A stretch of 43,657 bases of DNA from Escherichia coli (GTDB lineage Bacteria; Pseudomonadota; Gammaproteobacteria; Enterobacterales; Enterobacteriaceae): the NCBI RefSeq assembly GCF_003334315.1, contig NZ_QOWR01000041.1; one strand, 5' to 3'. Under the pieces are notes generated by a model, which saw only the letters and a list, made by a program, of their open reading frames with translations, was not told the origin of the DNA and did no database searches. Every line of letters begins with the position of its first letter. Position 1 is the first letter of the stretch. A program made the translations under genes and the position numbers. Of the stretch, positions 885 through 35,026 are shown piece by piece.

Positions 885-3146
885 ATGTCGCAACATAACG
901 AAAAGAACCCACATCAGCACCAGTCACCACTACACGATTCCAGCGAAGCGAAACCGGGGATGGACTCACTGGCACCTGAGGACGGATCTCATCGTCCAGC
1001 GGCTGAACCAACACCGCCAGGTGCACAACCTACCGCCCCTGGGAGCCTGAAAGCCCCTGATACACGTAACGAAAAACTTAATTCTCTGGAAGACGTACGC
1101 AAAGGCAGTGAAAATTATGCGCTGACCACTAATCAGGGCGTGCGCATCGCCGATGATCAAAACTCACTGCGTGCCGGTAACCGTGGTCCAACGCTGCTGG
1201 AAGATTTTATTCTGCGCGAGAAAATCACCCACTTTGACCATGAGCGCATCCCGGAACGTATTGTTCATGCACGCGGATCAGCAGCTCACGGTTATTTCCA
1301 GCCATATAAAAGCTTAAGCGATATCACCAAAGCGGATTTCCTCTCAGATCCGAACAAAATCACCCCAGTATTTGTTAGGTTCTCTACCGTTCAGGGTGGC
1401 GCTGGCTCTGCCGATACCGTGCGTGATATCCGTGGTTTTGCCACCAAGTTCTATACTGAAGAGGGTATTTTTGACCTCGTTGGCAATAACACGCCAATCT
1501 TCTTTATCCAGGATGCGCATAAATTCCCCGATTTTGTTCATGCGGTAAAACCAGAACCGCACTGGGCAATTCCACAAGGGCAAAGTGCCCACGATACTTT
1601 CTGGGATTATGTTTCTCTGCAACCTGAAACTCTGCACAACGTGATGTGGGCGATGTCGGATCGCGGCATCCCCCGCAGTTACCGCACCATGGAAGGCTTC
1701 GGTATTCACACCTTCCGCCTGATTAATGCCGAAGGGAAGGCAACGTTTGTACGTTTCCACTGGAAACCACTGGCAGGTAAAGCCTCACTCGTTTGGGATG
1801 AAGCACAAAAACTCACCGGACGTGACCCGGACTTCCACCGCCGCGAGTTGTGGGAAGCCATTGAAGCAGGCGATTTTCCGGAATACGAACTGGGCTTCCA
1901 GTTGATTCCTGAAGAAGATGAATTCAAGTTCGACTTCGATCTTCTCGATCCAACCAAACTTATCCCGGAAGAACTGGTGCCCGTTCAGCGTGTCGGCAAA
2001 ATGGTGCTCAATCGCAACCCGGATAACTTCTTTGCCGAAAACGAACAAGCAGCATTCCATCCAGGTCATATTGTTCCTGGTCTGGACTTCACCAACGATC
2101 CGCTGTTGCAGGGGCGTTTATTCTCCTATACCGATACACAAATCAGTCGTCTTGGCGGGCCAAATTTCCATGAGATTCCGATTAACCGTCCGACCTGCCC
2201 TTACCATAATTTCCAGCGTGACGGCATGCATCGCATGGGGATCGACACTAACCCGGCTAATTACGAACCGAACTCGATTAACGATAACTGGCCGCGCGAA
2301 ACACCGCCGGGGCCGAAACGCGGCGGTTTTGAATCATACCAGGAGCGCGTGGAAGGCAATAAAGTTCGCGAGCGCAGCCCATCGTTTGGCGAATATTATT
2401 CCCATCCGCGTCTGTTCTGGCTAAGTCAGACGCCATTTGAGCAGCGCCATATTGTCGATGGTTTCAGTTTTGAGTTAAGCAAAGTCGTTCGTCCGTATAT
2501 TCGTGAGCGCGTTGTTGACCAGCTGGCGCATATTGATCTCACTCTGGCCCAGGCGGTGGCGAAAAATCTCGGTATCGAACTGACTGACGACCAGCTGAAT
2601 ATCACCCCACCTCCGGACGTCAACGGTCTGAAAAAGGATCCATCCTTAAGTTTGTACGCCATTCCTGACGGTGATGTGAAAGGTCGCGTGGTAGCGATTT
2701 TACTTAATGATGAAGTGAGATCGGCAGACCTTCTGGCCATTCTCAAGGCGCTGAAGGCCAAAGGCGTTCATGCCAAACTGCTCTACTCCCGAATGGGTGA
2801 AGTGACTGCGGATGACGGTACGGTGTTGCCTATAGCCGCTACCTTTGCCGGTGCACCTTCGCTGACGGTCGATGCGGTCATTGTCCCTTGCGGCAATATC
2901 GCGGATATCGCTGACAACGGCGATGCCAACTACTACCTGATGGAAGCCTACAAACACCTTAAACCGATTGCGCTGGCGGGTGACGCGCGCAAGTTTAAAG
3001 CAACAATCAAGGTCGCTGACCAGGGTGAAGAAGGGATTGTGGAAGCTGACAGCGCTGACGGTAGTTTTATGGATGAACTGCTAACGCTGATGGCAGCACA
3101 CCGCGTGTGGTCACGCATTCCTAAGATTGACAAAATTCCTGCCTGA
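885..3146 (+). CDS. katE: Catalase HPII (large-subunit monofunctional catalase)
   Basis: 753-aa ORF with N-terminus [20 protein letters not shown] and catalase core motifs (RERIPERVVHA-like, GSAAHGYF); length matches KatE. Confidence 0.97.
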
Positions 3147-6873: not shown

Positions 6874-8232
6874 TTAAAATTTCAGGGCGTTAGCGATATC
6901 TTCTTCGCTCTCTTCTTTATCAATCGCATTTTGTGCTTTGTTAGCCACCACAACAAAGGGCAGATAAATTAACGTTGCGATGCCAAGGTTGAAGAGTGCG
7001 ACCAGCAATGCGGCGACGCTACCGTTGGTATTAAAGAAGGCTCCCAGACCGGTTGGCATGGTCCACGGTGCAATATTGGTCACCGGAGGAATAATGCCCA
7101 TGTAGTACGCTGCGAGGGTGATTGCCGCCAGAATCGGTTGTACCAGTACAAACGGGATAAACATCACCGGGTTCATGATAATTGGCAGACCAAACAGAAT
7201 CGGTTCGTTAATCTGGAAGATGCCGGACGGCAGCGCCAGTTTTGCCACCTGACGATAATCAGCACAGCGAGAGGCGATAAAGATAGCCAGGATCAGGCCT
7301 AAAGTCGCACCACTGCCCCCAAGGAAAATAAAGGAGTCCAGCATCGGCTTGGCCCAGATATGGAAGGTCTTACCGGCTGCCAGCGCCGCTTCGACGGAAC
7401 CATATTGCTGATAGGTCGCGATATTTTCCAGCGCCCACGGCGTCATTATGCCGTTGTCCAGTGCGGTCAGCGCCAGCGCGCCATGAATACCGAAGAACCA
7501 GAGCAGTGGAACAAAGATCACATAGGCCCAGCCCACCACGCTACCCAACGATGCCAGTGGAGTTGAGATGGTATCCATAATGATCTGATGGAAGTTGGTG
7601 CCCCAGGTATTCAACGCCCAGGCAATAATCCCCATCACGGAAAGAATAATAAAGCCGGGAATTAATGCCGAGAAGGAACGCGATACTGAAGCAGGTACGC
7701 TGTCGGGCAGTTTAATGACCCAATTGCGGCGGACAATAAAGGTAAACATTTCTGCCACCACCAGGCCAATAATAATCCCGGAGATGATATTCGCCCCACC
7801 TAACCAGTTTGCGCCAACCGCATAGGCCTCACCGACACTATATGGGGTGACGGTCATAAATGCTGCAACGGATAACAACCCAGCCGCCAGCGCATCGACT
7901 TTACGCTCTTCTGCCAGCGCCATGCCAATAAAGAACGGTGCCATTAAAGACATTATCCCTAATGTTCCGTTATATACGTTGCCGCCAATACCTTTCAGAC
8001 CATTAAGTGTTTCAATGGTTGAGGCGTCGAGGCGAATACCTAAGGAATAAAAAAACGACCCCTCCCCAAAGCTTAGAAAAACGTTGTTAATTAATACAAA
8101 CATGGCCCCCACAAGGGTTAACGGCATTAAGCGAATAAAGCCATTTTTGATTGCATTAACGTGTGGCTGCTTTCCTATTTTAACTGCAAAAGGGAGGAGT
8201 ACCTTTTCAAGCGATGCAATAACATTACTCAT
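6874..8232 (-). CDS. chbC: PTS chitobiose-specific IIC permease
   Basis: 452-aa hydrophobic multi-pass ORF between chbA and chbB; recognised as EIIC of the lactose/cellobiose family. Confidence 0.93.
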
Positions 8233-8316: not shown

Positions 8317-8637
8317 TTAATTTGCTGCGGCTTTTTTAATCGCTGCAACCGCAGCCTTAAGCACGCCTAAACCATCGACTTTGCCATAAAGCAGCGAGTC
8401 AATTACTTCAACCGGTTTGTTGGGTAACAAACGCTGGATTTCGGGCAACATATAAGCAATCTGCGGCCCTAATAACACGACATCGGCATTCTGACCTTTT
8501 TCACCAGCCAGTGTTTCCGGAAATGCTTCAATAATGACCGGAACTTCATATTTTTCTGCCTGTGCGCGCATTTTTGATACCAGTAAAGAGGTAGACATGC
8601 CCGCAGAACAAAACAGATAAATGTGTTTCTTTTCCAT
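8317..8637 (-). CDS. chbB: PTS chitobiose-specific IIB component
   Basis: 106-aa [32 protein letters not shown]… containing the EIIB active-site Cys loop. Confidence 0.92.
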
Positions 8638-8877
8638 AAAACTGCCCTCATCGACGATTATCTGTCAGCCAGACACTCCGCAAGCCTTAACCTGCTTCCA
8701 TGCTCTGGGTAACTTGCGAAACCAACATGACTTTTGTTGTGGCTGAAAGGAGTATACGGTATAGACCTGAGCAATAGTATTTCTTTGACCTTATAAATTG
8801 TCTCTCCTTGACCTGCGGTTATGACCCTCTTCACATTTCGGGCAAATAATTCGCGAAGATAATTAAGAACTCAGACC
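8638..8877 (-). promoter_or_regulatory. chbB upstream control region, with a candidate NagC/ChbR-type operator around 8845-8865
   Basis: 240-bp AT-rich intergenic region upstream of chbB on the minus strand; contains the imperfect palindrome aataattcgcgaagataatt. Sites not mapped precisely. Confidence 0.35.
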
Positions 8878-20252: not shown

Positions 20253-20418
20253 TTTAGCAGCTCTCCTGGCTCAAACTGGGTCAGGAGAATTAACCTTGAG
20301 AAAAATCAACAAACTGTCAGTAATGATTTGTTGCCTGCCGTCCTTTGTTATACCGTCTCTGCGTTTTTAGTTGTCTGACCACTTCTCTATTATCAAGTTT
20401 GATATAGGAAACTCCACG

Positions 20419-21129
20419 ATGAACGCTGAGCGTAAATTTCTTTTTGCCTGTCTTATTTTTGCGCTGGTCATTTACGCTATCCACGCTTTCGGTTTATTCG
20501 ATCTGCTCACCGATTTACCCCACTTACAGACACTCATCCGCCAGAGCGGATTTTTCGGCTATAGCCTCTATATTCTGTTATTCATCATTGCCACCCTCTT
20601 GCTGTTACCAGGAAGCATACTGGTGATCGCGGGAGGAATAGTTTTTGGCCCGCTCTTAGGGACACTACTCTCATTAATTGCCGCCACGCTGGCCTCCTCG
20701 TGCTCATTCCTGCTGGCGCGCTGGCTGGGACGTGATTTACTGCTGAAATACGTTGGCCATAGCAATACCTTCCAGGCCATTGAAAAAGGCATTGCGCGTA
20801 ACGGTATTGATTTTCTTATTCTGACCCGCTTAATCCCGTTGTTTCCTTACAATATTCAAAATTACGCTTACGGATTAACCACAATCGCCTTCTGGCCTTA
20901 TACCCTTATTTCGGCACTCACGACCCTACCCGGTATTGTTATTTATACCGTGATGGCAAGCGATCTCGCCAATGAAGGCATTACGCTGCGCTTTATTTTA
21001 CAACTCTGTCTGGCGGGCCTGGCGCTGTTTATTCTCGTCCAGCTCGCAAAACTCTACGCCCGACACAAACATGTGGATCTGTCTGCTTCGCGCCGCAGCC
21101 CACTTACTCACCCAAAAAATGAAGGATAG
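20419..21129 (+). CDS. ydjX: DedA/TVP38-family inner-membrane protein
   Basis: 236-aa hydrophobic protein starting MNAERKFLFACLIFALVIYA… with a DedA-type core (GxxxGP…FLLARWLGR). Confidence 0.85.
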   Translation: MNAERKFLFACLIFALVIYAIHAFGLFDLLTDLPHLQTLIRQSGFFGYSLYILLFIIATLLLLPGSILVIAGGIVFGPLLGTLLSLIAATLASSCSFLLARWLGRDLLLKYVGHSNTFQAIEKGIARNGIDFLILTRLIPLFPYNIQNYAYGLTTIAFWPYTLISALTTLPGIVIYTVMASDLANEGITLRFILQLCLAGLALFILVQLAKLYARHKHVDLSASRRSPLTHPKNEG

Positions 21130-21133
21130 AACG

Positions 21134-21811
21134 ATGTTGCAACATTATTCAGTGTCATGGAAAAAAGGACTGGCTGCACTCTGTTTACTGGCTGTTGCTG
21201 GGCTTAGCGGCTGCGATCAACAAGAGAATGCGGCGGCAAAAGTGGAATACGACGGACTTTCGAACAGCCAACCGCTGCGTGTCGATGCCAATAACCATAC
21301 GGTAACCATGCTGGTGCAAATTAATGGTCGTTTCCTCACCGACGACACTCGTCACGGTATTGTGTTTAAAGATGGCTCCAACGGACATAAATCGCTGTTT
21401 ATGGGTTATGCGACCCCGAAAGCATTTTATGAAGCCCTGAAAGAGGCAGGTGGTACGCCGGGCGAAAACATGACGATGGATAATAAAGAAACGACTCATG
21501 TCACAGGCAGCAAACTGGATATTTCGGTCAACTGGCAAGGGGCGGCAAAAGCGTATTCCTTCGATGAAGTGATTGTTGACAGTAATGGCAAGAAACTGGA
21601 CATGCGCTTTGGCGGTAATTTAACGGCAGCAGAAGAGAAGAAAACGGGTTGCCTGGTGTGTCTGGATAGCTGCCCGGTCGGCATCGTCAGCAATGCAACA
21701 TACACTTATGGTGCGGTTGAAAAACGTGATGAAGTTAAATTCAAAGGCAATGCCTCAGTTCTCCCGGCGGATAACACGCTGGCAACGGTTACCTTTAAAA
21801 TCGCCGAATAA
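21134..21811 (+). CDS. ydjY: Putative lipoprotein YdjY
   Basis: 225-aa product MLQHYSVSWKKGLAALCLLAVAGLSGCDQQ… with a lipobox LSGC and a C-terminal CLVCLDSCP cysteine cluster; starts 4 nt after ydjX. Confidence 0.85.
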   Translation: MLQHYSVSWKKGLAALCLLAVAGLSGCDQQENAAAKVEYDGLSNSQPLRVDANNHTVTMLVQINGRFLTDDTRHGIVFKDGSNGHKSLFMGYATPKAFYEALKEAGGTPGENMTMDNKETTHVTGSKLDISVNWQGAAKAYSFDEVIVDSNGKKLDMRFGGNLTAAEEKKTGCLVCLDSCPVGIVSNATYTYGAVEKRDEVKFKGNASVLPADNTLATVTFKIAE

Positions 21812-21825
21812 AGCCAGGATAAAGG

Positions 21826-22533
21826 ATGATGATGATGCAATCGCGAAAAATCTGGTACTACCGTATAACCCTCATCATCCTGTTGTTCGCTATGCTGCTG
21901 GCATGGGCGCTGCTTCCCGGTGTCCATGAGTTTATCAATCGCAGCGTTGCGGCGTTTGCCGCCGTGGACCAACAGGGTATAGAACGCTTTATTCAGTCTT
22001 ACGGCGCACTGGCGGCAGTTGTCTCGTTCTTGTTGATGATTTTGCAGGCCATTGCTGCACCGCTACCTGCGTTTTTGATCACCTTTGCCAATGCGTCGCT
22101 GTTTGGCGCGTTCTGGGGCGGCTTGCTGTCGTGGACCAGTTCGATGGCCGGCGCGGCGCTGTGCTTTTTTATCGCCAGAGTGATGGGCCGCGAAGTGGTG
22201 GAAAAATTAACCGGCAAAACCGTGCTTGACAGTATGGACGGCTTTTTCACTCGCTACGGCAAACACACCATTCTGGTCTGTCGGTTATTGCCTTTTGTCC
22301 CTTTCGATCCAATCAGCTATGCTGCCGGTTTGACTTCAATACGTTTTCGCTCGTTTTTTATCGCCACCGGGCTTGGTCAGTTACCGGCAACTATTGTTTA
22401 TTCCTGGGCGGGCAGCATGTTAACAGGCGGTACTTTCTGGTTTGTCACCGGACTGTTTATTCTGTTTGCCCTGACCGTGGTGATTTTTATGGCGAAGAAA
22501 ATATGGCTTGAACGCCAGAAGAGGAATGCCTGA
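21826..22533 (+). CDS. ydjZ: DedA/TVP38-family inner-membrane protein
   Basis: 235-aa hydrophobic ORF (…FIARVMGREVVEKL…), a paralogue of ydjX in the same array. Confidence 0.85.
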   Translation: MMMMQSRKIWYYRITLIILLFAMLLAWALLPGVHEFINRSVAAFAAVDQQGIERFIQSYGALAAVVSFLLMILQAIAAPLPAFLITFANASLFGAFWGGLLSWTSSMAGAALCFFIARVMGREVVEKLTGKTVLDSMDGFFTRYGKHTILVCRLLPFVPFDPISYAAGLTSIRFRSFFIATGLGQLPATIVYSWAGSMLTGGTFWFVTGLFILFALTVVIFMAKKIWLERQKRNA

Positions 22534-23081
22534 TGGGTTTACCGCCGCTTAGCAAAATTCCTTTAATTTTACGTCCACAGGCGTGGCTGCATCGTCGCCA
22601 TTACGGCGAGGTGCTAAGCCCCATTCGCTGGTGGGGGCGGATCCCGTTTATCTTTTATCTGGTGTCGATGTTTGTTGGCTGGCTGGAGCGCAAACGCTCA
22701 CCGCTCGATCCGGTAGTACGATCGCTTGTCAGCGCGCGCATTGCGCAAATGTGCCTGTGTGAGTTTTGTGTGGATATCACCAGTATGAAAGTCGCCGAGC
22801 GCACCGGCAGCAGCGATAAACTGCTGGCAGTGGCTGACTGGCGGCAAAGCCCGCTCTTTAGCGATGAAGAACGGCTGGCGCTGGAGTACGCCGAAGCCGC
22901 AAGCGTAACGCCGCCAACGGTCGATGATGCCCTGCGTACCCGACTGGCTGCGCATTTTGACGCTCAGGCGCTCACCGAACTGACGGCATTGATCGGCCTG
23001 CAAAATCTGTCAGCCCGTTTTAATTCTGCCATGGACATTCCCGCTCAGGGGCTGTGCCGTATTCCTGAAAAACGTTCTTAA
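22533..23081 (+). CDS. ynjA: Uncharacterised protein YnjA (probably AhpD/carboxymuconolactone-decarboxylase-like)
   Basis: 182-aa ORF whose start overlaps the ydjZ stop (TGATG); contains a Cys-rich CLCEFC motif. The family assignment is from memory and not verified. Confidence 0.8.
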   Translation: MGLPPLSKIPLILRPQAWLHRRHYGEVLSPIRWWGRIPFIFYLVSMFVGWLERKRSPLDPVVRSLVSARIAQMCLCEFCVDITSMKVAERTGSSDKLLAVADWRQSPLFSDEERLALEYAEAASVTPPTVDDALRTRLAAHFDAQALTELTALIGLQNLSARFNSAMDIPAQGLCRIPEKRS

Positions 23082-23090
23082 GGAGAGATG

Positions 23091-24257
23091 ATGCGCCATT
23101 GTGGGTGGTTGCTGGGATTGTTATCGCTGTTTTCTCTGGCAACACATGCCAGTGACTGGCAAGAAATTAAAAATGAGGCCAAAGGGCAAACCGTCTGGTT
23201 TAACGCCTGGGGCGGCGATACCGCAATTAACCGCTATCTCGACTGGGTGAGCGGCGAGATGAAAACCCATTACGCTATAAACCTGAAGATTGTCCGTCTG
23301 GCGGATGCCGCAGACGCGGTGAAGCGCATTCAGACCGAAGCCGCAGCCGGACGTAAAACGGGCGGCTCGGTGGATCTGCTCTGGGTGAACGGCGAAAACT
23401 TCCGCACCTTAAAAGAGGCCAATTTATTACAAACGGGCTGGGCGGAGACTCTGCCCAACTGGCGCTATGTCGACACACAGCTGCCGGTGCGGGAAGATTT
23501 TTCTGTGCCGACACAAGGTGCGGAATCGCCCTGGGGCGGCGCACAACTGACGTTTATCGCCCGCCGCGATGTTACGCCACAGCCACCACAAACGCCGCAA
23601 GCCTTACTGGAGTTTGCTAAAGCCAATCCCGGCACGGTTACCTATCCGCGCCCACCGGACTTTACCGGCACGGCGTTTCTTGAACAGTTGCTGATTATGC
23701 TGACGCCCGATCCCGCCGCATTAAAAGAAGCGCCGGACGATGCGACTTTCGCCCGTGTCACTGCTCCCTTGTGGCAATATCTTGATGTGCTGCATCCGTA
23801 TTTGTGGCGCGAAGGAAAGGATTTCCCGCCTTCACCCGCGCGGATGGATGCTCTGCTGAAAGCCGGCACATTGCGCCTGTCGCTGACCTTTAACCCCGCG
23901 CATGCGCAGCAAAAAATCGCCAGCGGCGATTTGCCTGCAAGCAGTTACAGTTTTGGCTTTCGCGAGGGGATGATTGGCAACGTGCATTTCGTCACCATTC
24001 CTGCCAACGCGAATGCCAGTGCTGCGGCGAAGGTAGTTGCCAATTTCCTGCTCTCACCCGATGCGCAACTGCGTAAAGCAGATCCCGCTGTCTGGGGCGA
24101 TCCTTCTGTTCTCGATCCGCAAAAACTGCCTGACGGGCAGCGCGAATCATTGCAATCAAGAATGCCGCAGGATCTGCCGCCGGTACTGGCTGAACCGCAC
24201 GCAGGTTGGGTAAATGCGCTGGAACAAGAATGGCTACACCGTTACGGTACGCATTAA
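23091..24257 (+). CDS. ynjB: ABC transporter periplasmic substrate-binding protein
   Basis: 388-aa product with signal peptide MRHCGWLLGLLSLFSLATHA; RBS AGGAGA precedes it; the start may be 1 codon upstream (23088). Confidence 0.85.
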   Translation: MRHCGWLLGLLSLFSLATHASDWQEIKNEAKGQTVWFNAWGGDTAINRYLDWVSGEMKTHYAINLKIVRLADAADAVKRIQTEAAAGRKTGGSVDLLWVNGENFRTLKEANLLQTGWAETLPNWRYVDTQLPVREDFSVPTQGAESPWGGAQLTFIARRDVTPQPPQTPQALLEFAKANPGTVTYPRPPDFTGTAFLEQLLIMLTPDPAALKEAPDDATFARVTAPLWQYLDVLHPYLWREGKDFPPSPARMDALLKAGTLRLSLTFNPAHAQQKIASGDLPASSYSFGFREGMIGNVHFVTIPANANASAAAKVVANFLLSPDAQLRKADPAVWGDPSVLDPQKLPDGQRESLQSRMPQDLPPVLAEPHAGWVNALEQEWLHRYGTH

Positions 24258-25765
24258 TCTTTTTGCTGTGGGCGATGGTGGCGGTGATTTATGCACCGCT
24301 GATCCCGGCAGCTCTCACGCTGATATCGCCTGCTTTGTCGTTGACACACTGGCAGGCGTTATTTGCCGATCCACAGTTACCGCAGGCATTACTGGCAACG
24401 CTGGTGTCGACAACCATCGCGGCGGTCGGGGCATTGTTGATTGCCCTGCTGGTGATTGTGGCGCTGTGGCCTGGGCCGAAATGGCAGCGTATGTGCGCCC
24501 GTCTGCCGTGGCTGCTCGCCATTCCCCATGTGGCTTTTGCCACCAGCGCCCTTCTGCTCTTTGCTGACGGAGGGCTGCTTTATGACTATTTCCCGTATTT
24601 CACTCCGCCAATGGACCGATTTGGCATCGGTCTGGGCCTCACCCTTGCAGTGAAAGAAAGCGCATTTCTGCTGTGGATCTTAGCAGCAGTATTGAGCGAA
24701 AAATGGCTGTTGCAGCAGGTCATTGTGCTGGATTCGCTGGGCTACAGCCGCTGGCAATGCCTGAACTGGCTGCTGTTGCCCTCCGTCGCGCCTGCGCTGG
24801 CAATGGCGATGCTGGCGATTGTTGCCTGGTCGCTGTCGGTCGTGGATGTGGCAATTATTCTCGGGCCAGGTAATCCCCCGACGCTGGCGGTAATTAGCTG
24901 GCAGTGGTTAACCCAGGGCGACATTGACCAACAAACAAAAGGCGCGCTTGCCAGCCTGCTGTTGATGCTGTTACTCGCCGCCTACGTTTTGCTGAGCTAT
25001 CTGCTATGGCGCAGCTGGCGGCGCACTATTCCCCGCGTAGATGGCGTTCGCAAGCCTGCCACGCCTTTATTGCCGGGCAATACGCTGGCGATTTTTTTAC
25101 CCTTAACCGGTGTGCTGTGTGTGGTTCTGCTGGCGATCCTCGCGGATCAGTCGACGATCAATAGTGAAGCGCTCATCAACAGCCTGACAATGGGGCTGGT
25201 GGCGACATTCATCGCTTTGCTCCTGTTACTGCTGTGGCTGGAATGGGGGCCACAGCGTCGCCAGTTGTGGCTATGGTTGCCCATTTTATTACCTGCTCTG
25301 CCACTGGTGGCGGGCCAGTACACGCTGGCGCTATGGCTGAAACTGGATGGAAGCTGGACGGCGGTGGTCTGGGGGCATCTGCTGTGGGTGATGCCGTGGA
25401 TGCTGTTTATCCTGCAACCCGCCTGGCAGCGCATTGATTCACGGTTAATTTTGATTGCGCAAACACTGGGCTGGTCGCGGGCCAAAATCTTCTTTTACGT
25501 GAAATGCCCACTCATGTTGCGCCCTGTGCTGATTGCCTTCGCGGTGGGATTTGCAGTCGGTATTGCGCAGTATATGCCAACGCTGTGGCTGGGCGCGGGG
25601 CGTTTTCCGACGCTCACCACTGAGGCGGTGGCATTAAGCAGCGGCGGCAGCAACGGTATTCTCGCCGCCCAGGCTTTATGGCAACTGCTATTACCGCTTA
25701 TTATTTTTGCCCTGACCGCGTTAGTCGCAAAATGGGTAGGTTATGTCAGACAAGGACTCCGCTAA
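24230..25765 (+). CDS. ynjC: ABC transporter permease (two-domain)
   Basis: 511-aa multi-pass membrane ORF; overlaps the ynjB 3' end by 28 nt; the start is chosen by length and may be off by a few codons. Confidence 0.85.
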   Translation: MATPLRYALIFLLWAMVAVIYAPLIPAALTLISPALSLTHWQALFADPQLPQALLATLVSTTIAAVGALLIALLVIVALWPGPKWQRMCARLPWLLAIPHVAFATSALLLFADGGLLYDYFPYFTPPMDRFGIGLGLTLAVKESAFLLWILAAVLSEKWLLQQVIVLDSLGYSRWQCLNWLLLPSVAPALAMAMLAIVAWSLSVVDVAIILGPGNPPTLAVISWQWLTQGDIDQQTKGALASLLLMLLLAAYVLLSYLLWRSWRRTIPRVDGVRKPATPLLPGNTLAIFLPLTGVLCVVLLAILADQSTINSEALINSLTMGLVATFIALLLLLLWLEWGPQRRQLWLWLPILLPALPLVAGQYTLALWLKLDGSWTAVVWGHLLWVMPWMLFILQPAWQRIDSRLILIAQTLGWSRAKIFFYVKCPLMLRPVLIAFAVGFAVGIAQYMPTLWLGAGRFPTLTTEAVALSSGGSNGILAAQALWQLLLPLIIFALTALVAKWVGYVRQGLR

Positions 25766-26418
25766 TGCTCTGCGTGAAAAATGTTTCGCTACGTTTACCA
25801 GAAAGCCGCTTGCTGACAAACGTTAACTTTACGGTGGATAAAGGTGACATTGTCACGTTAATGGGGCCGTCTGGCTGTGGAAAATCCACTCTGTTTTCAT
25901 GGATGATTGGTGCACTGGCCGAACAGTTTTCTTGTACAGGTGAGCTATGGCTCAATGAGCAACGGATTGACATCCTACCCACCGCACAGCGTCAGATTGG
26001 CATTCTTTTTCAGGATGCACTGTTATTTGACCAGTTCAGTGTCGGGCAAAATTTACTGCTGGCGCTACCGGCGACACTTAAAGGGAATGCCCGACGTAAT
26101 GCCGTGAATGATGCACTTGAGCGTTCAGGCCTTGAGGGAGCTTTCCATCAGGATCCTGCCACTTTGTCTGGCGGTCAGCGAGCGCGCGTTGCTCTACTAC
26201 GCGCCCTTCTCGCCCAACCAAAAGCGTTACTCCTGGATGAGCCATTCAGCCGTCTTGATGTGGCTCTGCGCGATAATTTTCGCCAGTGGGTGTTCAGCGA
26301 AGTTCGCGCCCTGGCGATCCCCGTCGTTCAGGTAACGCACGATCTCCAGGATGTTCCTGCTGATAGTTCTGTTCTGGATATGGCGCAGTGGTCAGAAAAT
26401 TACAACAAACTGCGATAA
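25765..26418 (+). CDS. ynjD: ABC transporter ATP-binding protein
   Basis: 217-aa product MLCVKNVSLRLPESRLLTNVNFTVDKGDIVTLMGPSGCGKSTL… with Walker A, LSGGQ signature and Walker B; its start overlaps the ynjC stop (TAATG). Confidence 0.9.
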   Translation: MLCVKNVSLRLPESRLLTNVNFTVDKGDIVTLMGPSGCGKSTLFSWMIGALAEQFSCTGELWLNEQRIDILPTAQRQIGILFQDALLFDQFSVGQNLLLALPATLKGNARRNAVNDALERSGLEGAFHQDPATLSGGQRARVALLRALLAQPKALLLDEPFSRLDVALRDNFRQWVFSEVRALAIPVVQVTHDLQDVPADSSVLDMAQWSENYNKLR

Positions 26419-26484
26419 CGCAAAGTTTTTCTCAATGCGTCAGTTCAGAATGGCGCACTCAAAACTACAATGTCGGGATTTTCG

Positions 26485-27792
26485 ATGAAACGTGTTTCTC
26501 AAATGACCGCGCTGGCAATGGCTTTAGGGCTGGCTTGCGCTTCTTCGTGGGCCGCTGAACTGGCGAAGCCTCTTACACTTGACCAGCTTCAACAACAAAA
26601 TGGCAAAGCGATAGATACTCGCCCCAGCGCGTTTTATAACGGCTGGCCACAAACCTTAAATGGCCCTTCTGGTCATGAACCTGCCGCCTTAAACCTCTCT
26701 GCCAGCTGGCTTGACAAAATGAGCACCGAACAGCTCAACGCGTGGATCAAGCAACATAACCTGAAAACCGATGCTCCGGTGGCGCTGTACGGTAATGACA
26801 AAGATGTCGACGCCGTCAAAACGCGACTGCAAAAAGCAGGTTTAACGCATATCTCCATCCTGAGTGACGCGCTAAGCGAACCTTCCCGTCTGCAAAAACT
26901 GCCGCATTTTGAGCAGCTGGTTTATCCGCAATGGCTGCACGACCTGCAACAAGGTAAAGAGGTTACGGCGAAACCTGCCGGTGACTGGAAAGTCATTGAA
27001 GCGGCCTGGGGCGCTCCTAAGCTTTACCTTATCAGCCATATTCCCGGCGCTGACTACATCGATACCAACGAAGTGGAAAGTGAACCGCTGTGGAACAAAG
27101 TTTCTGATGAACAACTAAAAGCGATGCTGGCAAAACACGGCATTCGCCATGACACCACGGTCATTCTGTATGGGCGTGACGTATACGCTGCAGCGCGTGT
27201 GGCGCAGATTATGCTTTATGCTGGCGTGAAAGATGTGCGCCTGCTGGATGGCGACTGGCAAACCTGGTCCGACGCGGGACTGCCTGTTGAGCGCGGAACG
27301 CCACCGAAAGTGAAAGCGGAACCGGATTTCGGCGTGAAGATCCCGGCACAACCGCAGTTGATGCTCGATATGGAACAGGCCCGTGGACTGCTGCATCGCC
27401 AGGATGCATCGCTGGTGAGCATTCGTTCGTGGCCAGAATTTATCGGTACGACCAGCGGTTACAGCTATATTAAACCAAAAGGTGAAATAGCCGGAGCACG
27501 TTGGGGACACGCTGGTAGCGACTCGACGCATATGGAAGATTTTCATAACCCGGATGGCACCATGCGCAGCGCCGATGATATTACCGCTATGTGGAAAGCG
27601 TGGAATATCAAACCAGAGCAGCAAGTTTCATTCTACTGCGGCACCGGCTGGCGCGCGTCCGAAACCTTTATGTACGCACGCGCCATGGGTTGGAAGAATG
27701 TTTCCGTGTATGACGGCGGCTGGTACGAATGGAGCAGCGATCCAAAAAATCCGGTAGCAACCGGTGAACGCGGCCCGGACAGTAGCAAATAA
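26485..27792 (+). CDS. ynjE: Periplasmic multi-domain rhodanese (thiosulfate sulfurtransferase)
   Basis: 435-aa product MKRVSQMTALAMALGLACASSWAAELAK… with signal peptide and C-terminal rhodanese active-site CGTGWR. Confidence 0.9.
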   Translation: MKRVSQMTALAMALGLACASSWAAELAKPLTLDQLQQQNGKAIDTRPSAFYNGWPQTLNGPSGHEPAALNLSASWLDKMSTEQLNAWIKQHNLKTDAPVALYGNDKDVDAVKTRLQKAGLTHISILSDALSEPSRLQKLPHFEQLVYPQWLHDLQQGKEVTAKPAGDWKVIEAAWGAPKLYLISHIPGADYIDTNEVESEPLWNKVSDEQLKAMLAKHGIRHDTTVILYGRDVYAAARVAQIMLYAGVKDVRLLDGDWQTWSDAGLPVERGTPPKVKAEPDFGVKIPAQPQLMLDMEQARGLLHRQDASLVSIRSWPEFIGTTSGYSYIKPKGEIAGARWGHAGSDSTHMEDFHNPDGTMRSADDITAMWKAWNIKPEQQVSFYCGTGWRASETFMYARAMGWKNVSVYDGGWYEWSSDPKNPVATGERGPDSSK

Positions 27793-27800
27793 CATTGCAA

Positions 27801-28427
27801 TTACTGACGCTGGAGCGACTTCAGCGTCAGATACCCACTCCACACCCGCGTAAAGGTCGTCATCCAGCACAACGCACCGAAGATCCACGCAAACCACGCA
27901 AACCATGCAGGGAATAAACATCCCAGCACAAACAGTAAGATCGTTTCTGTGCCTTCGGTTAATCCCCCCAGATAGTAAAACGACTTATGTGCATAACCGG
28001 GGTTATCAATCTGATGTTTTGCTGCCAGTGCAGCAAAGGCGAGAAAACTGCTGCCCGTGCCGATAAACGCAAACAACAACCAGCCGCCTGCCAGCGCATT
28101 TTGCTCCGGTGCAGCAAGAATAAAGCCAAACGGCACCAGCGCGTAAAAGAGAAAATCGAGAGAAATATCAAGAAAGCCGCCCGCGTCGGTAAGCTCTCTG
28201 CGCCGCGCCAGCGCACCGTCCAGACCATCAAGCAGCCTGTTCAACAAAATGACGACTAGCGCCGCCAGATACCAGCCCAGCGCCAGAAACGGCAGAGCCA
28301 GTACGCCGATGGCAAATCCCACTAATGTTAAACCATCTGGCGTAATGCCCGGTTTATCAAGAACCCGCACGCATTGATGCAACAACGGTTTAATCCGGGG
28401 ATGAAGATGGCGGTCTAGCACAGGCAC
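27801..28427 (-). CDS. ynjF: CDP-alcohol phosphatidyltransferase-family membrane protein
   Basis: 208-aa ORF with D-G-x2-A-R…G-x3-D-x3-D-like motif (LLDGLDGALARRRELTDAGGFLDISLD); the true start may be the GTG 2 codons in. Confidence 0.85.
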   Translation of the reverse strand: MPVLDRHLHPRIKPLLHQCVRVLDKPGITPDGLTLVGFAIGVLALPFLALGWYLAALVVILLNRLLDGLDGALARRRELTDAGGFLDISLDFLFYALVPFGFILAAPEQNALAGGWLLFAFIGTGSSFLAFAALAAKHQIDNPGYAHKSFYYLGGLTEGTETILLFVLGCLFPAWFAWFAWIFGALCWMTTFTRVWSGYLTLKSLQRQ

Positions 28428-28507
28428 TCCTTAAATATAAAGCCTTTCTGATTGAGCAACAGTGCGGATATTATGGCATTTTTCGCTTATCTGCCCGTGT
28501 GTAATTT

Positions 28508-28915
28508 ATGAAAATGATTGAAGTTGTTGCCGCCATCATTGAACGTGATGGCAAAATTTTACTCGCGCAACGCCCCGCCCAGAGCGATCAGGCGGGATTA
28601 TGGGAGTTTGCCGGTGGTAAAGTCGAGCCGGATGAAAGTCAGCGGCAGGCGCTGGTGCGTGAGTTACGCGAAGAACTGGGCATCGAAGCAACTGTGGGTG
28701 AGTATGTTGCCAGCCATCAGCGAGAAGTTTCGGGGCGGATTATCCATCTTCATGCCTGGCACGTACCCGACTTCCACGGGACGTTACAGGCACATGAACA
28801 TCAGGCGCTGGTCTGGTGCTCACCTGAAGAGGCGCTGCAATATCCGCTGGCCCCTGCTGACATTCCACTATTAGAGGCGTTTATGGCTTTACGCGCCGCC
28901 AGACCAGCGGATTAG
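28508..28915 (+). CDS. nudG: Nudix hydrolase (CTP / 5-methyl-dCTP pyrophosphohydrolase)
   Basis: 135-aa ORF with the Nudix box GGKVEPDESQRQALVRELREELGIE. Confidence 0.92.
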   Translation: MKMIEVVAAIIERDGKILLAQRPAQSDQAGLWEFAGGKVEPDESQRQALVRELREELGIEATVGEYVASHQREVSGRIIHLHAWHVPDFHGTLQAHEHQALVWCSPEEALQYPLAPADIPLLEAFMALRAARPAD

Positions 28916-29153
28916 TGCTAAGGGTTTTGTCATCACGCTGGCATTGCAGCAGTATTCCCTCGGCTTTAATTACCGCTCCTTCAGAATAATTTTTATCCTG
29001 ATAAACGCAGCACTGAGTACAGGGCTGCGCTGACTGCCCGCCTGAACTGAACACTTCTGGCGGTACGTTTACCTCCACGTCCGGACGATAATGCGGGTTA
29101 GCCAGTGCAATTAATGGAAATGCTAATACTACGGCGAACAATGCTCGACTCAC
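28881..29153 (-). CDS. ynjH: Small secreted Cys-containing protein (DUF1496)
   Basis: 90-aa ORF MSRALFAVVLAFPLIALANPHYRPD… with a signal peptide; its 3' end overlaps the nudG 3' end by 35 nt. Confidence 0.8.
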   Translation of the reverse strand: MSRALFAVVLAFPLIALANPHYRPDVEVNVPPEVFSSGGQSAQPCTQCCVYQDKNYSEGAVIKAEGILLQCQRDDKTLSTNPLVWRRVKP

Positions 29154-29286
29154 AGGGAGCTCCTTAACGTTATTGTCTCTGCTACTGATAACGGTAGCCG
29201 GGCGGCAAAACTTTAGCGTCTGAGTTATCGCATTTGGTTATGAGATTACTCTCGTTATTAATTTGCTTTCCTGGGTCATTTTTTTC

Positions 29287-29317
29287 TTGCTTACCGTCAC
29301 ATTCTTGATGGTATAGT
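29287..29317 (+). promoter_or_regulatory. Candidate sigma-70 promoter for gdhA (TTGCTT - 19 bp - TATAGT)
   Basis: Hexamers read from the sequence about 70-100 nt upstream of the gdhA ATG; the spacer is slightly long, so the call is tentative. Confidence 0.35.
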
Positions 29318-33982: not shown

Positions 33983-35026
33983 TTAACGAATCTCAACCAT
34001 GGCACGACCGCCGCGCGCTGGCACCAGTTCGCCAATTGCCGTCAGTTCAATGCCAAACTCGGCGGCTGTAGCTTTGACCTCATTTTCTGCTTCCGGCATG
34101 ACCGCCAGCAGCAAACCGCCAGAAGTTTGCGGATCACACAGCAGATCGCGCACTTCACGCGGCATTTCACCCATCAGATGACCGTAGCTGGCAAAGTTAC
34201 GTTCAGTGCCGCCAGGTACTGCGCCCAACTTAATGTACTCTTCAACACCGGGGAGTTTCGGGATCGCTTCATAGTCGACGCGTGCCTGCACACCAGCCCC
34301 CTGACACATTTCGCTCAAGTGGCCCAGCAGACCAAAGCCCGTAACGTCGGTCATCGCTTTTACGCCTTCGATGTTGGCAAAGGACGCGCCTGCGATGTTC
34401 ATCCGGCACATCACTTCCGTCGCCAGTCCCTGATGTTCTGGTTTCAACAGTGATTTTTTCTCAGCCGTGGTAAGAACGCCGATCCCCAGCGGTTTCGTCA
34501 GGAACAGTTTGCATCCGGCTTGTGCGGTACTGTTTTTCTTCACCCGCTCGGTCGGTACGATCCCCGTTACCGCCAGACCAAAAATCGGCTCCGGCGCATC
34601 GATGGAGTGACCGCCAGCCAGCGCAATACCCGCCTGACGACATGCATAGCGTCCACCTTCGGTCACTTCGCGGGCAATTTCTGGGGAAAGTTTGTTAATC
34701 GGCCAGCCGAGGATCGCAATCGCCATAATCGGTTTGCCCCCCATCGCGAAGATATCGCTGATGGCGTTAGTCGCCGCAATGCGGCCAAAATCGAAAGGAT
34801 TATCAACGATCGGCATAAAGAAGTCGGTGGTACTGATAACGCTGGTGCCATTGCCCAGATCGTACACCGCCGCATCGTCGCGGGTTTCATTACCCACAAG
34901 CAAATTCGGATCAACAAACTTCGCCTGCTCACTATGCAGGATGGTTTCCAACACTTTTGGGGAAATTTTACAGCCGCAACCAGCTCCGTGGCTGTATTGG
35001 GTCAAACGAATCGAGTTCTCGCTCAT
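33983..35026 (-). CDS. selD: Selenide, water dikinase (selenophosphate synthetase)
   Basis: 347-aa product [30 protein letters not shown]… recognised as SelD; immediately upstream of topB. Confidence 0.95.

Follow-up and report, generated by a model that had tools for sequence, protein, structure and literature searches.

The convergent ynjE-ynjF junction of Escherichia coli: a candidate 3′-end stem-loop within the ynjF coding tail and a gene-order link between ynjF and the ydjX-ynjD transporter and DedA module

Phosphatidylcholine synthase, a member of the CDP-alcohol phosphatidyltransferase family, acts on CDP-diacylglycerol and a head group, choline, that is imported from outside, and stem-loops guard the 3′ ends of Rho-terminated mRNAs after exonuclease trimming. 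Trimming of 3′ ends is mentioned in PMC12350095. Convergent genes with 3′-overlapping transcription units, termed convergent excludons, have been catalogued in Escherichia coli MG1655 (ExcludonFinder, NAR 2025, PMC12288877), where 165 of them are present in at least 50% of 58 transcriptomes; ynjE-ynjF and nudG-ynjH both appear in this list. The COG0398 DedA proteins (TVP38/TMEM64-type) are predicted phospholipid scramblases, and fusion to a reductase is their commonest domain architecture (mBio 2023, PMC10127716). Here we describe the convergent pair ynjE and ynjF in a 43,657-nucleotide (nt) stretch of E. coli DNA (contig NZ_QOWR01000041.1), which as a whole is called the window and whose numbering is used throughout. 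Gene order in other bacteria strongly supports that ynjF belongs with the ydjX-ynjD transporter and DedA set. This operon linkage to ynjBCD and DedA is new, the transcript overlap of ynjE and ynjF being already known.

The gene order in the window is xthA, ydjX-ydjY-ydjZ-ynjA-ynjB-ynjC-ynjD, ynjE, ynjF (opposite strand), nudG, ynjH and gdhA, and the features on which the comparison turns are as follows.

20419 to 26418, plus strand: the ydjX-ydjY-ydjZ-ynjA-ynjB-ynjC-ynjD module, defined by annotation and NCBIfam, as an FNR-activated operon and by conserved linkage to ynjF
26485 to 27792, plus strand: ynjE, encoding a periplasmic three-domain rhodanese of 435 amino acids (open reading frame, RefSeq, match to PDB 3IPO/2WLR residues 20-435)
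27793 to 27800: the 8-nt spacer CATTGCAA between both stop codons
27801 to 28421, minus strand: ynjF, encoding a membrane protein of the CDP-alcohol phosphatidyltransferase family, 206 amino acids (open reading frame, RefSeq, PF01066 at E 5e-11, AlphaFold model with a predicted local distance difference test score, pLDDT, of 91.9)

According to annotation and NCBIfam, the module encodes two DedA proteins (YdjX and YdjZ, both of the COG0398 subfamily), a lipoprotein, an AhpD-like protein and an ATP-binding cassette (ABC) importer. To place ynjF in context we used a profile-guided scan with one genome per species, which gave the 80 closest loci, 60 of them non-enteric; six distant loci were considered as well. 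Of the 60 non-enteric loci, 53 have a ynjD homologue immediately upstream of ynjF in the same orientation, and 47 have ynjB, ynjC and ynjD upstream. Among 49 cases measured, 34 show an overlap of 7-11 nt between the ynjD stop and the ynjF start. The genera concerned include Vibrio, Photobacterium, Aliivibrio, Enterovibrio, Grimontia, Salinivibrio, Moritella, Pseudoalteromonas, Idiomarina, Psychrobacter, Aeromonas, Cobetia and Marinimicrobium. Twenty-eight non-enteric loci have a COG0398 DedA gene on the ynjF strand, fused in 22 of these to a pyridine-nucleotide-disulfide oxidoreductase. An ABC importer and/or a DedA::reductase fusion also adjoins homologues of 36-40% identity, one in the order substrate-binding protein, permease, ATPase, YnjF, DedA::reductase and another in the order DedA::reductase, YnjF, DUF547. 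By parsimony, the co-directional ynjBCD-ynjF operon would be ancestral, and the ynjF piece would have been inverted in Enterobacterales, with ynjE in between. A functional link between ynjF and the adjacent module was the most speculative element of an earlier, sequence-only reading of this DNA, and judged by gene order it turns out to be the best-supported and most useful one. Unlike what is seen at the ynjF loci, no operon link to a phosphatidyltransferase is described in the study of the DedA subfamily (PMC10127716), and none of the papers searched pairs 'CDP-alcohol phosphatidyltransferase' with DedA, TVP38 or mercuric reductase. No solved structural relatives of YnjB or YdjY were found.

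The DedA/VTT::MerA/Lpd-like pyridine-nucleotide-disulfide oxidoreductase fusions are about 720 amino acids long and adjoin ynjF or ynjBCD (for example L025, 2241-4412; L055, 1666-3846; L084, 1235-3406; L085, 4870-7008). At three loci from some Vibrio and Enterovibrio (L029, 3-4170; L060, 123-4300; L053), the fusion is replaced by a GltD-like flavin adenine dinucleotide/iron-sulfur (FAD/FeS) protein, an HdrB-like CCG protein and a stand-alone DedA protein, and two of these loci (L029 and L060) begin with a two-domain rhodanese that has a CQSGVRS loop and is unrelated to YnjE. Disulfide/sulfur chemistry thus recurs at ynjF loci by way of non-orthologous genes. A fatty-acid-hydroxylase-like gene directly follows ynjF at ten loci; the product, also OlsE-like, was seen in Pseudoalteromonas, Psychrobacter and Idiomarina (L055, 8663-9454; L072, 8632-9435; and 8 others). 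Around one distant homologue, on a metagenome contig (L094, 41-2275), the operon consists of the phosphatidylserine decarboxylase gene psd, a PssA-like gene and the YnjF-like transferase, and is plainly phospholipid-biosynthetic.

In E. coli itself, the locus is the core-genome ynjE → ← ynjF junction and consists of two real, annotated genes. RefSeq calls the same two genes in identical E. coli genomes, several E. coli chromosomes match a 3-kb stretch of the locus at 100% identity, and 5424 of the 5426 complete genomes of the species contain it; the 131-nt junction is likewise found in one piece in 5424/5426, with an identity of 99% or more in 3950. ynjE stops at a TAA (27790-27792), and the ynjF stop is TAA read from 27803 to 27801 on the minus strand, so that the 8-nt separation reported for the stops ending at 27792 and 27801 is exact. 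Such spacing is not unusual, as the next convergent pair, nudG (plus strand) and ynjH (minus strand), has a 35-nt coding overlap at 28881-28915. The position first given as the other end of ynjF, 28427, is the first GTG of the longest open reading frame (27801-28427) and stands in that sense only; 28421 is the better-supported start because RefSeq places the start at this GTG, an AAGGAG at 28432-28427 lies 5 nt ahead of it while overlapping the upstream GTG, and ynjF homologues start with MLD. For ynjE, there is a second in-frame ATG at 26470.

Two FNR-activated promoters have been reported for this region in a genome-scale study (PMC3688515), one belonging to ynjE itself and directly activated, with a site at -41.5, and a separate one for ydjXYZ-ynjABCD, with a site at -60.5. 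In the window, a pattern search allowing 2 mismatches found no FNR box upstream of ynjE at 26380-26485, and a consensus scan gave the following.

26444 to 26471, plus strand: promoter-like hexamers TTCAGA-16-TACAAT upstream of ynjE

TTGAGAAAAATCAA at 20296-20309, some 110 nt ahead of ydjX, differs from the FNR consensus by one mismatch, which fits the reported FNR activation of ydjXYZ-ynjABCD. The proposal that the convergent ynjE and ynjF transcripts overlap is borne out by the RNA-seq listing of the pair, which together with the 8-nt spacing places it among the convergent excludons; both the pair and its overlap are ordinary and already catalogued. ynjE-ynjF shares with the other MG1655 convergent excludons a very short spacer and overlapping 3′ transcription, but what is published for it is the listing, in which reciprocal expression, RNase III cleavage and RNA end positions do not figure (PMC12288877).

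In order to see how far the junction is maintained, we compared 28 enterobacterial junctions, comprising E. coli, 21 genome loci and 6 from other genera. ynjE converges on ynjF in all 28, including Hafnia and Edwardsiella. Conservation of the pair, which the sequence-only reading had put forward as a check, thus holds in 5424/5426 E. coli genomes and throughout this set; YnjE orthologues are absent from all 60 non-enteric ynjF loci. Eight junctions have a stop-to-stop gap of -9 or -4 nt and six one of 4 to 8 nt, which gives 14 of the 28 with 8 nt or less; in eleven the gap measures 35 to 133 nt, and in three it reaches 336 to 646 nt. These data bear on the possibility that the pair is a regulatory excludon, in which anaerobic, FNR-driven ynjE transcription would repress ynjF and the reverse, leading to mutually exclusive expression by means of polymerase collision and RNase III cleavage of the RNA duplex. 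Its place in the core set of ExcludonFinder (pairs seen in no fewer than 50% of the 58 transcriptomes), the condition-specific ynjE promoter and a convergent adjacency that persists even in Hafnia and Edwardsiella, where ynjBCD are not nearby, would agree with such regulation. However, the gaps (-9 to +646 nt) vary too widely for a conserved extent of overlap, and reciprocal repression would be odd between partners, given that ynjF is co-transcribed with the module elsewhere. We regard the mutual repression as somewhat unlikely, and the collision and cleavage proposed to bring it about as equally so.

The reading we prefer assigns the junction a role in forming RNA 3′ ends, and three features are relevant here.

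27804 to 27830, both strands: H1, a stem-loop (CTGACGCTG / CAGCGTCAG) formed by the final nine codons of ynjF (LTLKSLQRQ), found by folding and comparison
27831 to 27950 (about 27800-27950), plus strand: a C-rich, G-poor stretch of ynjE read-through RNA, antisense to ynjF, found by GC skew
27741 to 27764, minus strand: H2, a candidate terminator-like hairpin CCGGT-TGCT-ACCGG followed by ATTTTTTGGA, inside the ynjE codons PKNPVATG, found by consensus scan

H1 starts 11 nt past the ynjE stop and has a stem of 9-12 base pairs, with 12 pairs on the plus strand; its folding energy is -19.4 kcal/mol (z -7.3) in the ynjE-sense RNA and -15 kcal/mol (z -5.1) in the ynjF-sense RNA. It is followed by AUACCCAC on the plus strand and UAAUUGCA on the minus strand, neither of which is a U-tract, and the terminator scan did not report it. 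We therefore rejected H1 as a canonical intrinsic (Rho-independent) terminator. Just beyond it the GC skew falls to between -0.30 and -0.22, the lowest within 27300-28600, and the C-rich stretch at 27831-27950 is a possible Rho loading region. In being stable, lacking a U-tract, lying just past a stop codon and preceding C-rich untranslated RNA, H1 resembles the protective 3′ stem-loops of Rho-terminated mRNAs; it differs from them in that it is made of the opposing gene's coding tail and that its role is one we infer.

H2 was examined as a terminator for ynjF. The scan for a terminator consensus matched CCGGTTGCTACCGG, then ATTTTTTGGA, at 27764-27741 on the ynjF-sense strand, and this match did not survive comparison: the fold has little stability (-8 kcal/mol, z -0.9), 8-15 of 28 species have breaks in the inner pairs, and covariation is at chance, with 137 of 500 shuffles reaching the score. 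The run of T can be explained by the usual Lys/Asn codons of the PKNP motif. In E. coli CREC_5 (L096), a 10-nt deletion, at the equivalent of window positions 27763-27772, frameshifts the ynjE tail and removes one H2 arm, leaving an annotated ynjE that overlaps ynjF by 53 nt; the deletion could be an assembly error. A bidirectional terminator, which would require an A-tract before the hairpin and a U-tract after it, was likewise rejected, since this combination is found at neither H1 nor H2. A simple consensus scan gave no plus-strand terminator after ynjE. At this junction, there is no canonical hairpin plus U-tract terminator backed by comparison on either strand, and an Rfam scan of 26300-29300 with E up to 1 found no known RNA family. 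The statement that there is no room for a terminator consequently applies to the 8-nt spacer and not to the junction at large, where the 3′-end signals, H1 and the candidate H2, are embedded in the partner's coding sequence.

Comparison across genera provided further information on H1. A homologous hairpin is present in about 12 of 26 aligned sequences, from Escherichia, Citrobacter, Pseudocitrobacter, Kluyvera, Klebsiella, Leclercia and Raoultella. For the closing pair of this hairpin, Val or Met in place of Leu on one arm goes with His in place of Gln on the other; in nucleotides, C-G becomes G-C or A-U. Over the whole alignment of 26, 65% of cells show pairing in the helix, a share that drops to 31-44% once the partner is slid. 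Its covariation score is attained by only 6 of 500 shuffles, the measures counting pairs or types do not rise above shuffles, and we take the covariation support as suggestive. The stronger point appears to be replacement: Edwardsiella, Scandinavium, E. asburiae, RIT691 and others, which lack H1, have unrelated strong hairpins at the same place. When all 36-nt windows across the gene pair are ranked, the best hairpin at the junction falls within the top 2% at 24 of the 28 loci; this test is more lenient at long-spacer loci, where more windows are tried. Could H1 nevertheless be a by-product of coding, the LTL and QRQ codons being complementary by chance and the hairpin having no RNA function? 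Both arms consist of common codons (CTG, ACG, CAG, CGT), the homologous hairpin is absent from about half of the genera, and pairs changed on both sides are no more numerous than in shuffles, all of which would fit such an origin. It is nonetheless quite unlikely in our view, as the YnjF tail beyond R192 is unconserved as protein among 35 homologues, the amino-acid replacements at the closing pair preserve nucleotide complementarity, and strong unrelated hairpins substitute at the same place.

Some junctions have been remodelled more extensively. Inserts of about 645 nt separate ynjF from ynjE in E. albertii and Cedecea (L006, 8643-9287; L009, 8724-9369), with a rewritten YnjF tail in E. albertii, and some Citrobacter have inserts of about 100 nt that form hairpins resembling repetitive extragenic palindromic (REP) elements (L003 and L005, about 8625-8724).

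On the other side of ynjF, a ynjA-like CMD/AhpD (carboxymuconolactone decarboxylase) gene abuts it upstream in most Enterobacteriaceae (L002-L021, L087 and L089-L091; about 7440-8008 or 2436-3008), although not in E. coli, Klebsiella and Raoultella; E. coli instead has ynjA and ydjY within the ydjX operon (21134-23081). In Hafnia and Edwardsiella, the ynjA-like gene, ynjF, ynjE and a DedA gene occur together, with ynjBCD not nearby. These arrangements also bear on whether ynjF might work with the divergent nudG, which encodes a CTP pyrophosphohydrolase, in cytidine-nucleotide/CDP-alcohol metabolism and not with the ynj module. The two genes are divergent, 86 nt apart, and both products act on cytidine nucleotides, but nudG adjoins ynjF only in Enterobacteriaceae, being absent from Hafnia, Edwardsiella and all non-enteric loci, and in most Enterobacteriaceae the ynjA-like gene intervenes. 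As the linkage is confined to Enterobacteriaceae, we rejected nudG as a functional partner and consider such a partnership very unlikely. Further out, selD lies at 33983-35026, about 5.5 kb from ynjF, and selD, topB, gdhA, ynjH and nudG stay close to the ynjF locus in most Enterobacteriaceae examined; the proximity of selD to genes for YnjA- and YnjE-type proteins, with their sulfur/selenium flavour, may or may not be coincidence.

To evaluate what YnjF, as a member of the module, might contribute, we turned to its sequence and to an AlphaFold model built on 35 diverse homologues (pLDDT 91.9).

28155 to 28229, minus strand: the YnjF signature D65-x2-D68-G-x2-A-R-x7-G81-x3-D85-x3-D89, from sequence and homologue alignment

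The earlier assignment of a CDP-alcohol phosphatidyltransferase motif was correct: the motif from D65 to D89 is complete, its residues are invariant or nearly so in the 35 homologues, the match to PF01066 has an E value of 5e-11, and the protein has an all-helical membrane fold. The best structural and profile matches are the phosphatidylinositol-phosphate (PIP), archaetidylinositol-phosphate and di-inositol-phosphate-phosphate (DIPP) synthases (6H59, 5D92, 4MND, 4O6M), which have the same full DxxDGxxAR...GxxxDxxxD motif, a similar size and the same six-helix fold. In Foldseek the model superposes on PIP synthases, AF2299 and DIPP synthase with template modelling (TM) scores of 0.66-0.78 (E about 1e-4), and the best NCBIfam scores are 63.2 bits for archaetidylinositol-phosphate synthase (cut-off 180) and 41.9 bits for PIP synthase (cut-off 170). 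Compared to these enzymes, however, YnjF is only 17-24% identical. Inositol lipids are not known from E. coli. The weakest alternative, that YnjF just duplicates a known E. coli phospholipid synthase such as PgsA, is highly improbable: YnjF is in the same Pfam family as PgsA, but its model fits PgsA weakly (7DRJ/7DRK; TM 0.43-0.50, E 0.08-0.14; Foldseek) in comparison with the PIP and DIPP synthases, the NCBIfam scan gave no PgsA match, and R62, K146, E159, T160 and R192 are invariant residues specific to the YnjF family.

Two of these residues may bear on the nature of the acceptor. R192 aligns with R195 of Mycobacterium tuberculosis PgsA1, one of two arginines binding the phosphate of the inositol-phosphate acceptor, and K146, going by alignment to the DIPP synthase, may replace R152 or R155. 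We read this as a pocket like that of the PIP synthases, predicted to accommodate an anionic alcohol, in a protein that would yet not be a PIP synthase. A possible analogy with phosphatidylcholine synthase and its imported choline lies in the family and the proposed import of a head group; matches to the Pcs models themselves are at E about 4e-4 and 20 bits (cut-offs 300 and 440). No functional literature on YnjF was found under ynjF, b1758, P76226 or JW1747, in agreement with the earlier remark that no substrate is known; no published substrate was found.

For the partner across the junction, two protein features can be placed in the window.

26485 to 26553, plus strand: the YnjE signal peptide MKRVSQMTALAMALGLACASSWA, from sequence; crystallised constructs begin at residue 20 or 23
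27637 to 27654, plus strand: the YnjE active-site loop C385-GTGWR (CGTGWR), placed by residue numbering

YnjE is the solved three-domain rhodanese (match to 3IPO/2WLR at E about 1e-289), as had been stated when ynjE was described as encoding a multi-domain rhodanese, and its rhodanese domains, C385 loop and identity to the solved protein make it a rhodanese sulfurtransferase. The next solved relatives are sulfurtransferases of 441-460 residues (for example 6KTV and 6H98), with E values of about 1e-86 to 1e-88. A 2023 study (PMC10215317) describes YnjE as periplasmic and its physiological substrate as unclear.

Taken together, we consider it probable that the locus is a convergent pair with interpenetrating 3′ ends, in which H1 is the 3′-end stem-loop of ynjE and ynjF is a displaced member of the module. 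Transcription of ynjE from its own FNR-activated promoter would run past the stop codon into the ynjF tail, where, going by what is generally known of Rho-dependent 3′ ends, Rho would end the RNA in the untranslated C-rich antisense stretch and H1 would define or protect the mature 3′ end. In the ynjF mRNA, by contrast, H1 would be melted by translating ribosomes, and ynjF transcription would reach at least some tens of nt into the ynjE tail. With read-through from both sides the two RNAs would overlap, as the published RNA-seq catalogue lists. ynjF itself would be the displaced counterpart of what elsewhere in Gammaproteobacteria is the last, translationally coupled gene of ynjB-ynjC-ynjD, accompanied there by genes for a YnjA-like protein and a COG0398 DedA protein, the latter often as a fusion with a disulfide reductase. 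Most likely, YnjF would move a phosphatidyl group from CDP-diacylglycerol onto an anionic alcohol supplied via YnjBCD, and the DedA proteins would redistribute the resulting lipid.

Several observations weigh against this picture. We infer the Rho step and the role of H1, because no 3′-end map was found for either gene: the Adams 2021 and TERMITe Term-seq supplements hold no 3′-end entry for ynjE or ynjF (TERMITe searched by name and b-number), and nudG likewise has no entry in the Adams 2021 supplements. About half of the enterobacterial genera lack the homologous H1, and covariation measures that count pairs or types do not exceed the shuffles. YnjF scores far under every NCBIfam synthase cut-off and thus reaches no named synthase family, and at the position of R94 of PIP synthase it has an invariant phenylalanine, F90. 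More distant homologues are found in other contexts, and the convergent arrangement in E. coli would work against co-expression of ynjF with its presumed partners.

Extending the displaced-member reading to a pathway, we tentatively propose, as a hypothesis that is rather unlikely to hold in full, that a pathway conserved in Gammaproteobacteria joins YnjF to the YnjBCD importer, COG0398 DedA proteins and thiol/sulfur redox partners, and would build and redistribute an undescribed phospholipid. That the imported compound is an anionic, possibly sulfur-bearing alcohol and that the pathway is switched on anaerobically by FNR in E. coli are details we hold just as tentatively, and with the same reserve the redox partners may be named as YnjA, a disulfide reductase (either fused or separate) and a rhodanese, for instance YnjE, in some lineages.

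At the RNA level, H1 would be a clear example of a 3′-end stem-loop written into the dispensable coding tail of the opposing gene, at a junction where a hairpin appears to be kept by complementary amino-acid changes or swapped for unrelated hairpins across genera. At the level of function, ynjF, an uncharacterised E. coli gene, is now tied by conserved operon structure to YnjBCD and to YdjX/YdjZ, the function-less COG0398 DedA proteins, which brings three orphan gene sets into one testable pathway. If true, a YnjF/YnjBCD/DedA pathway would provide the first function for ynjF and for bacterial TVP38-type DedA proteins.

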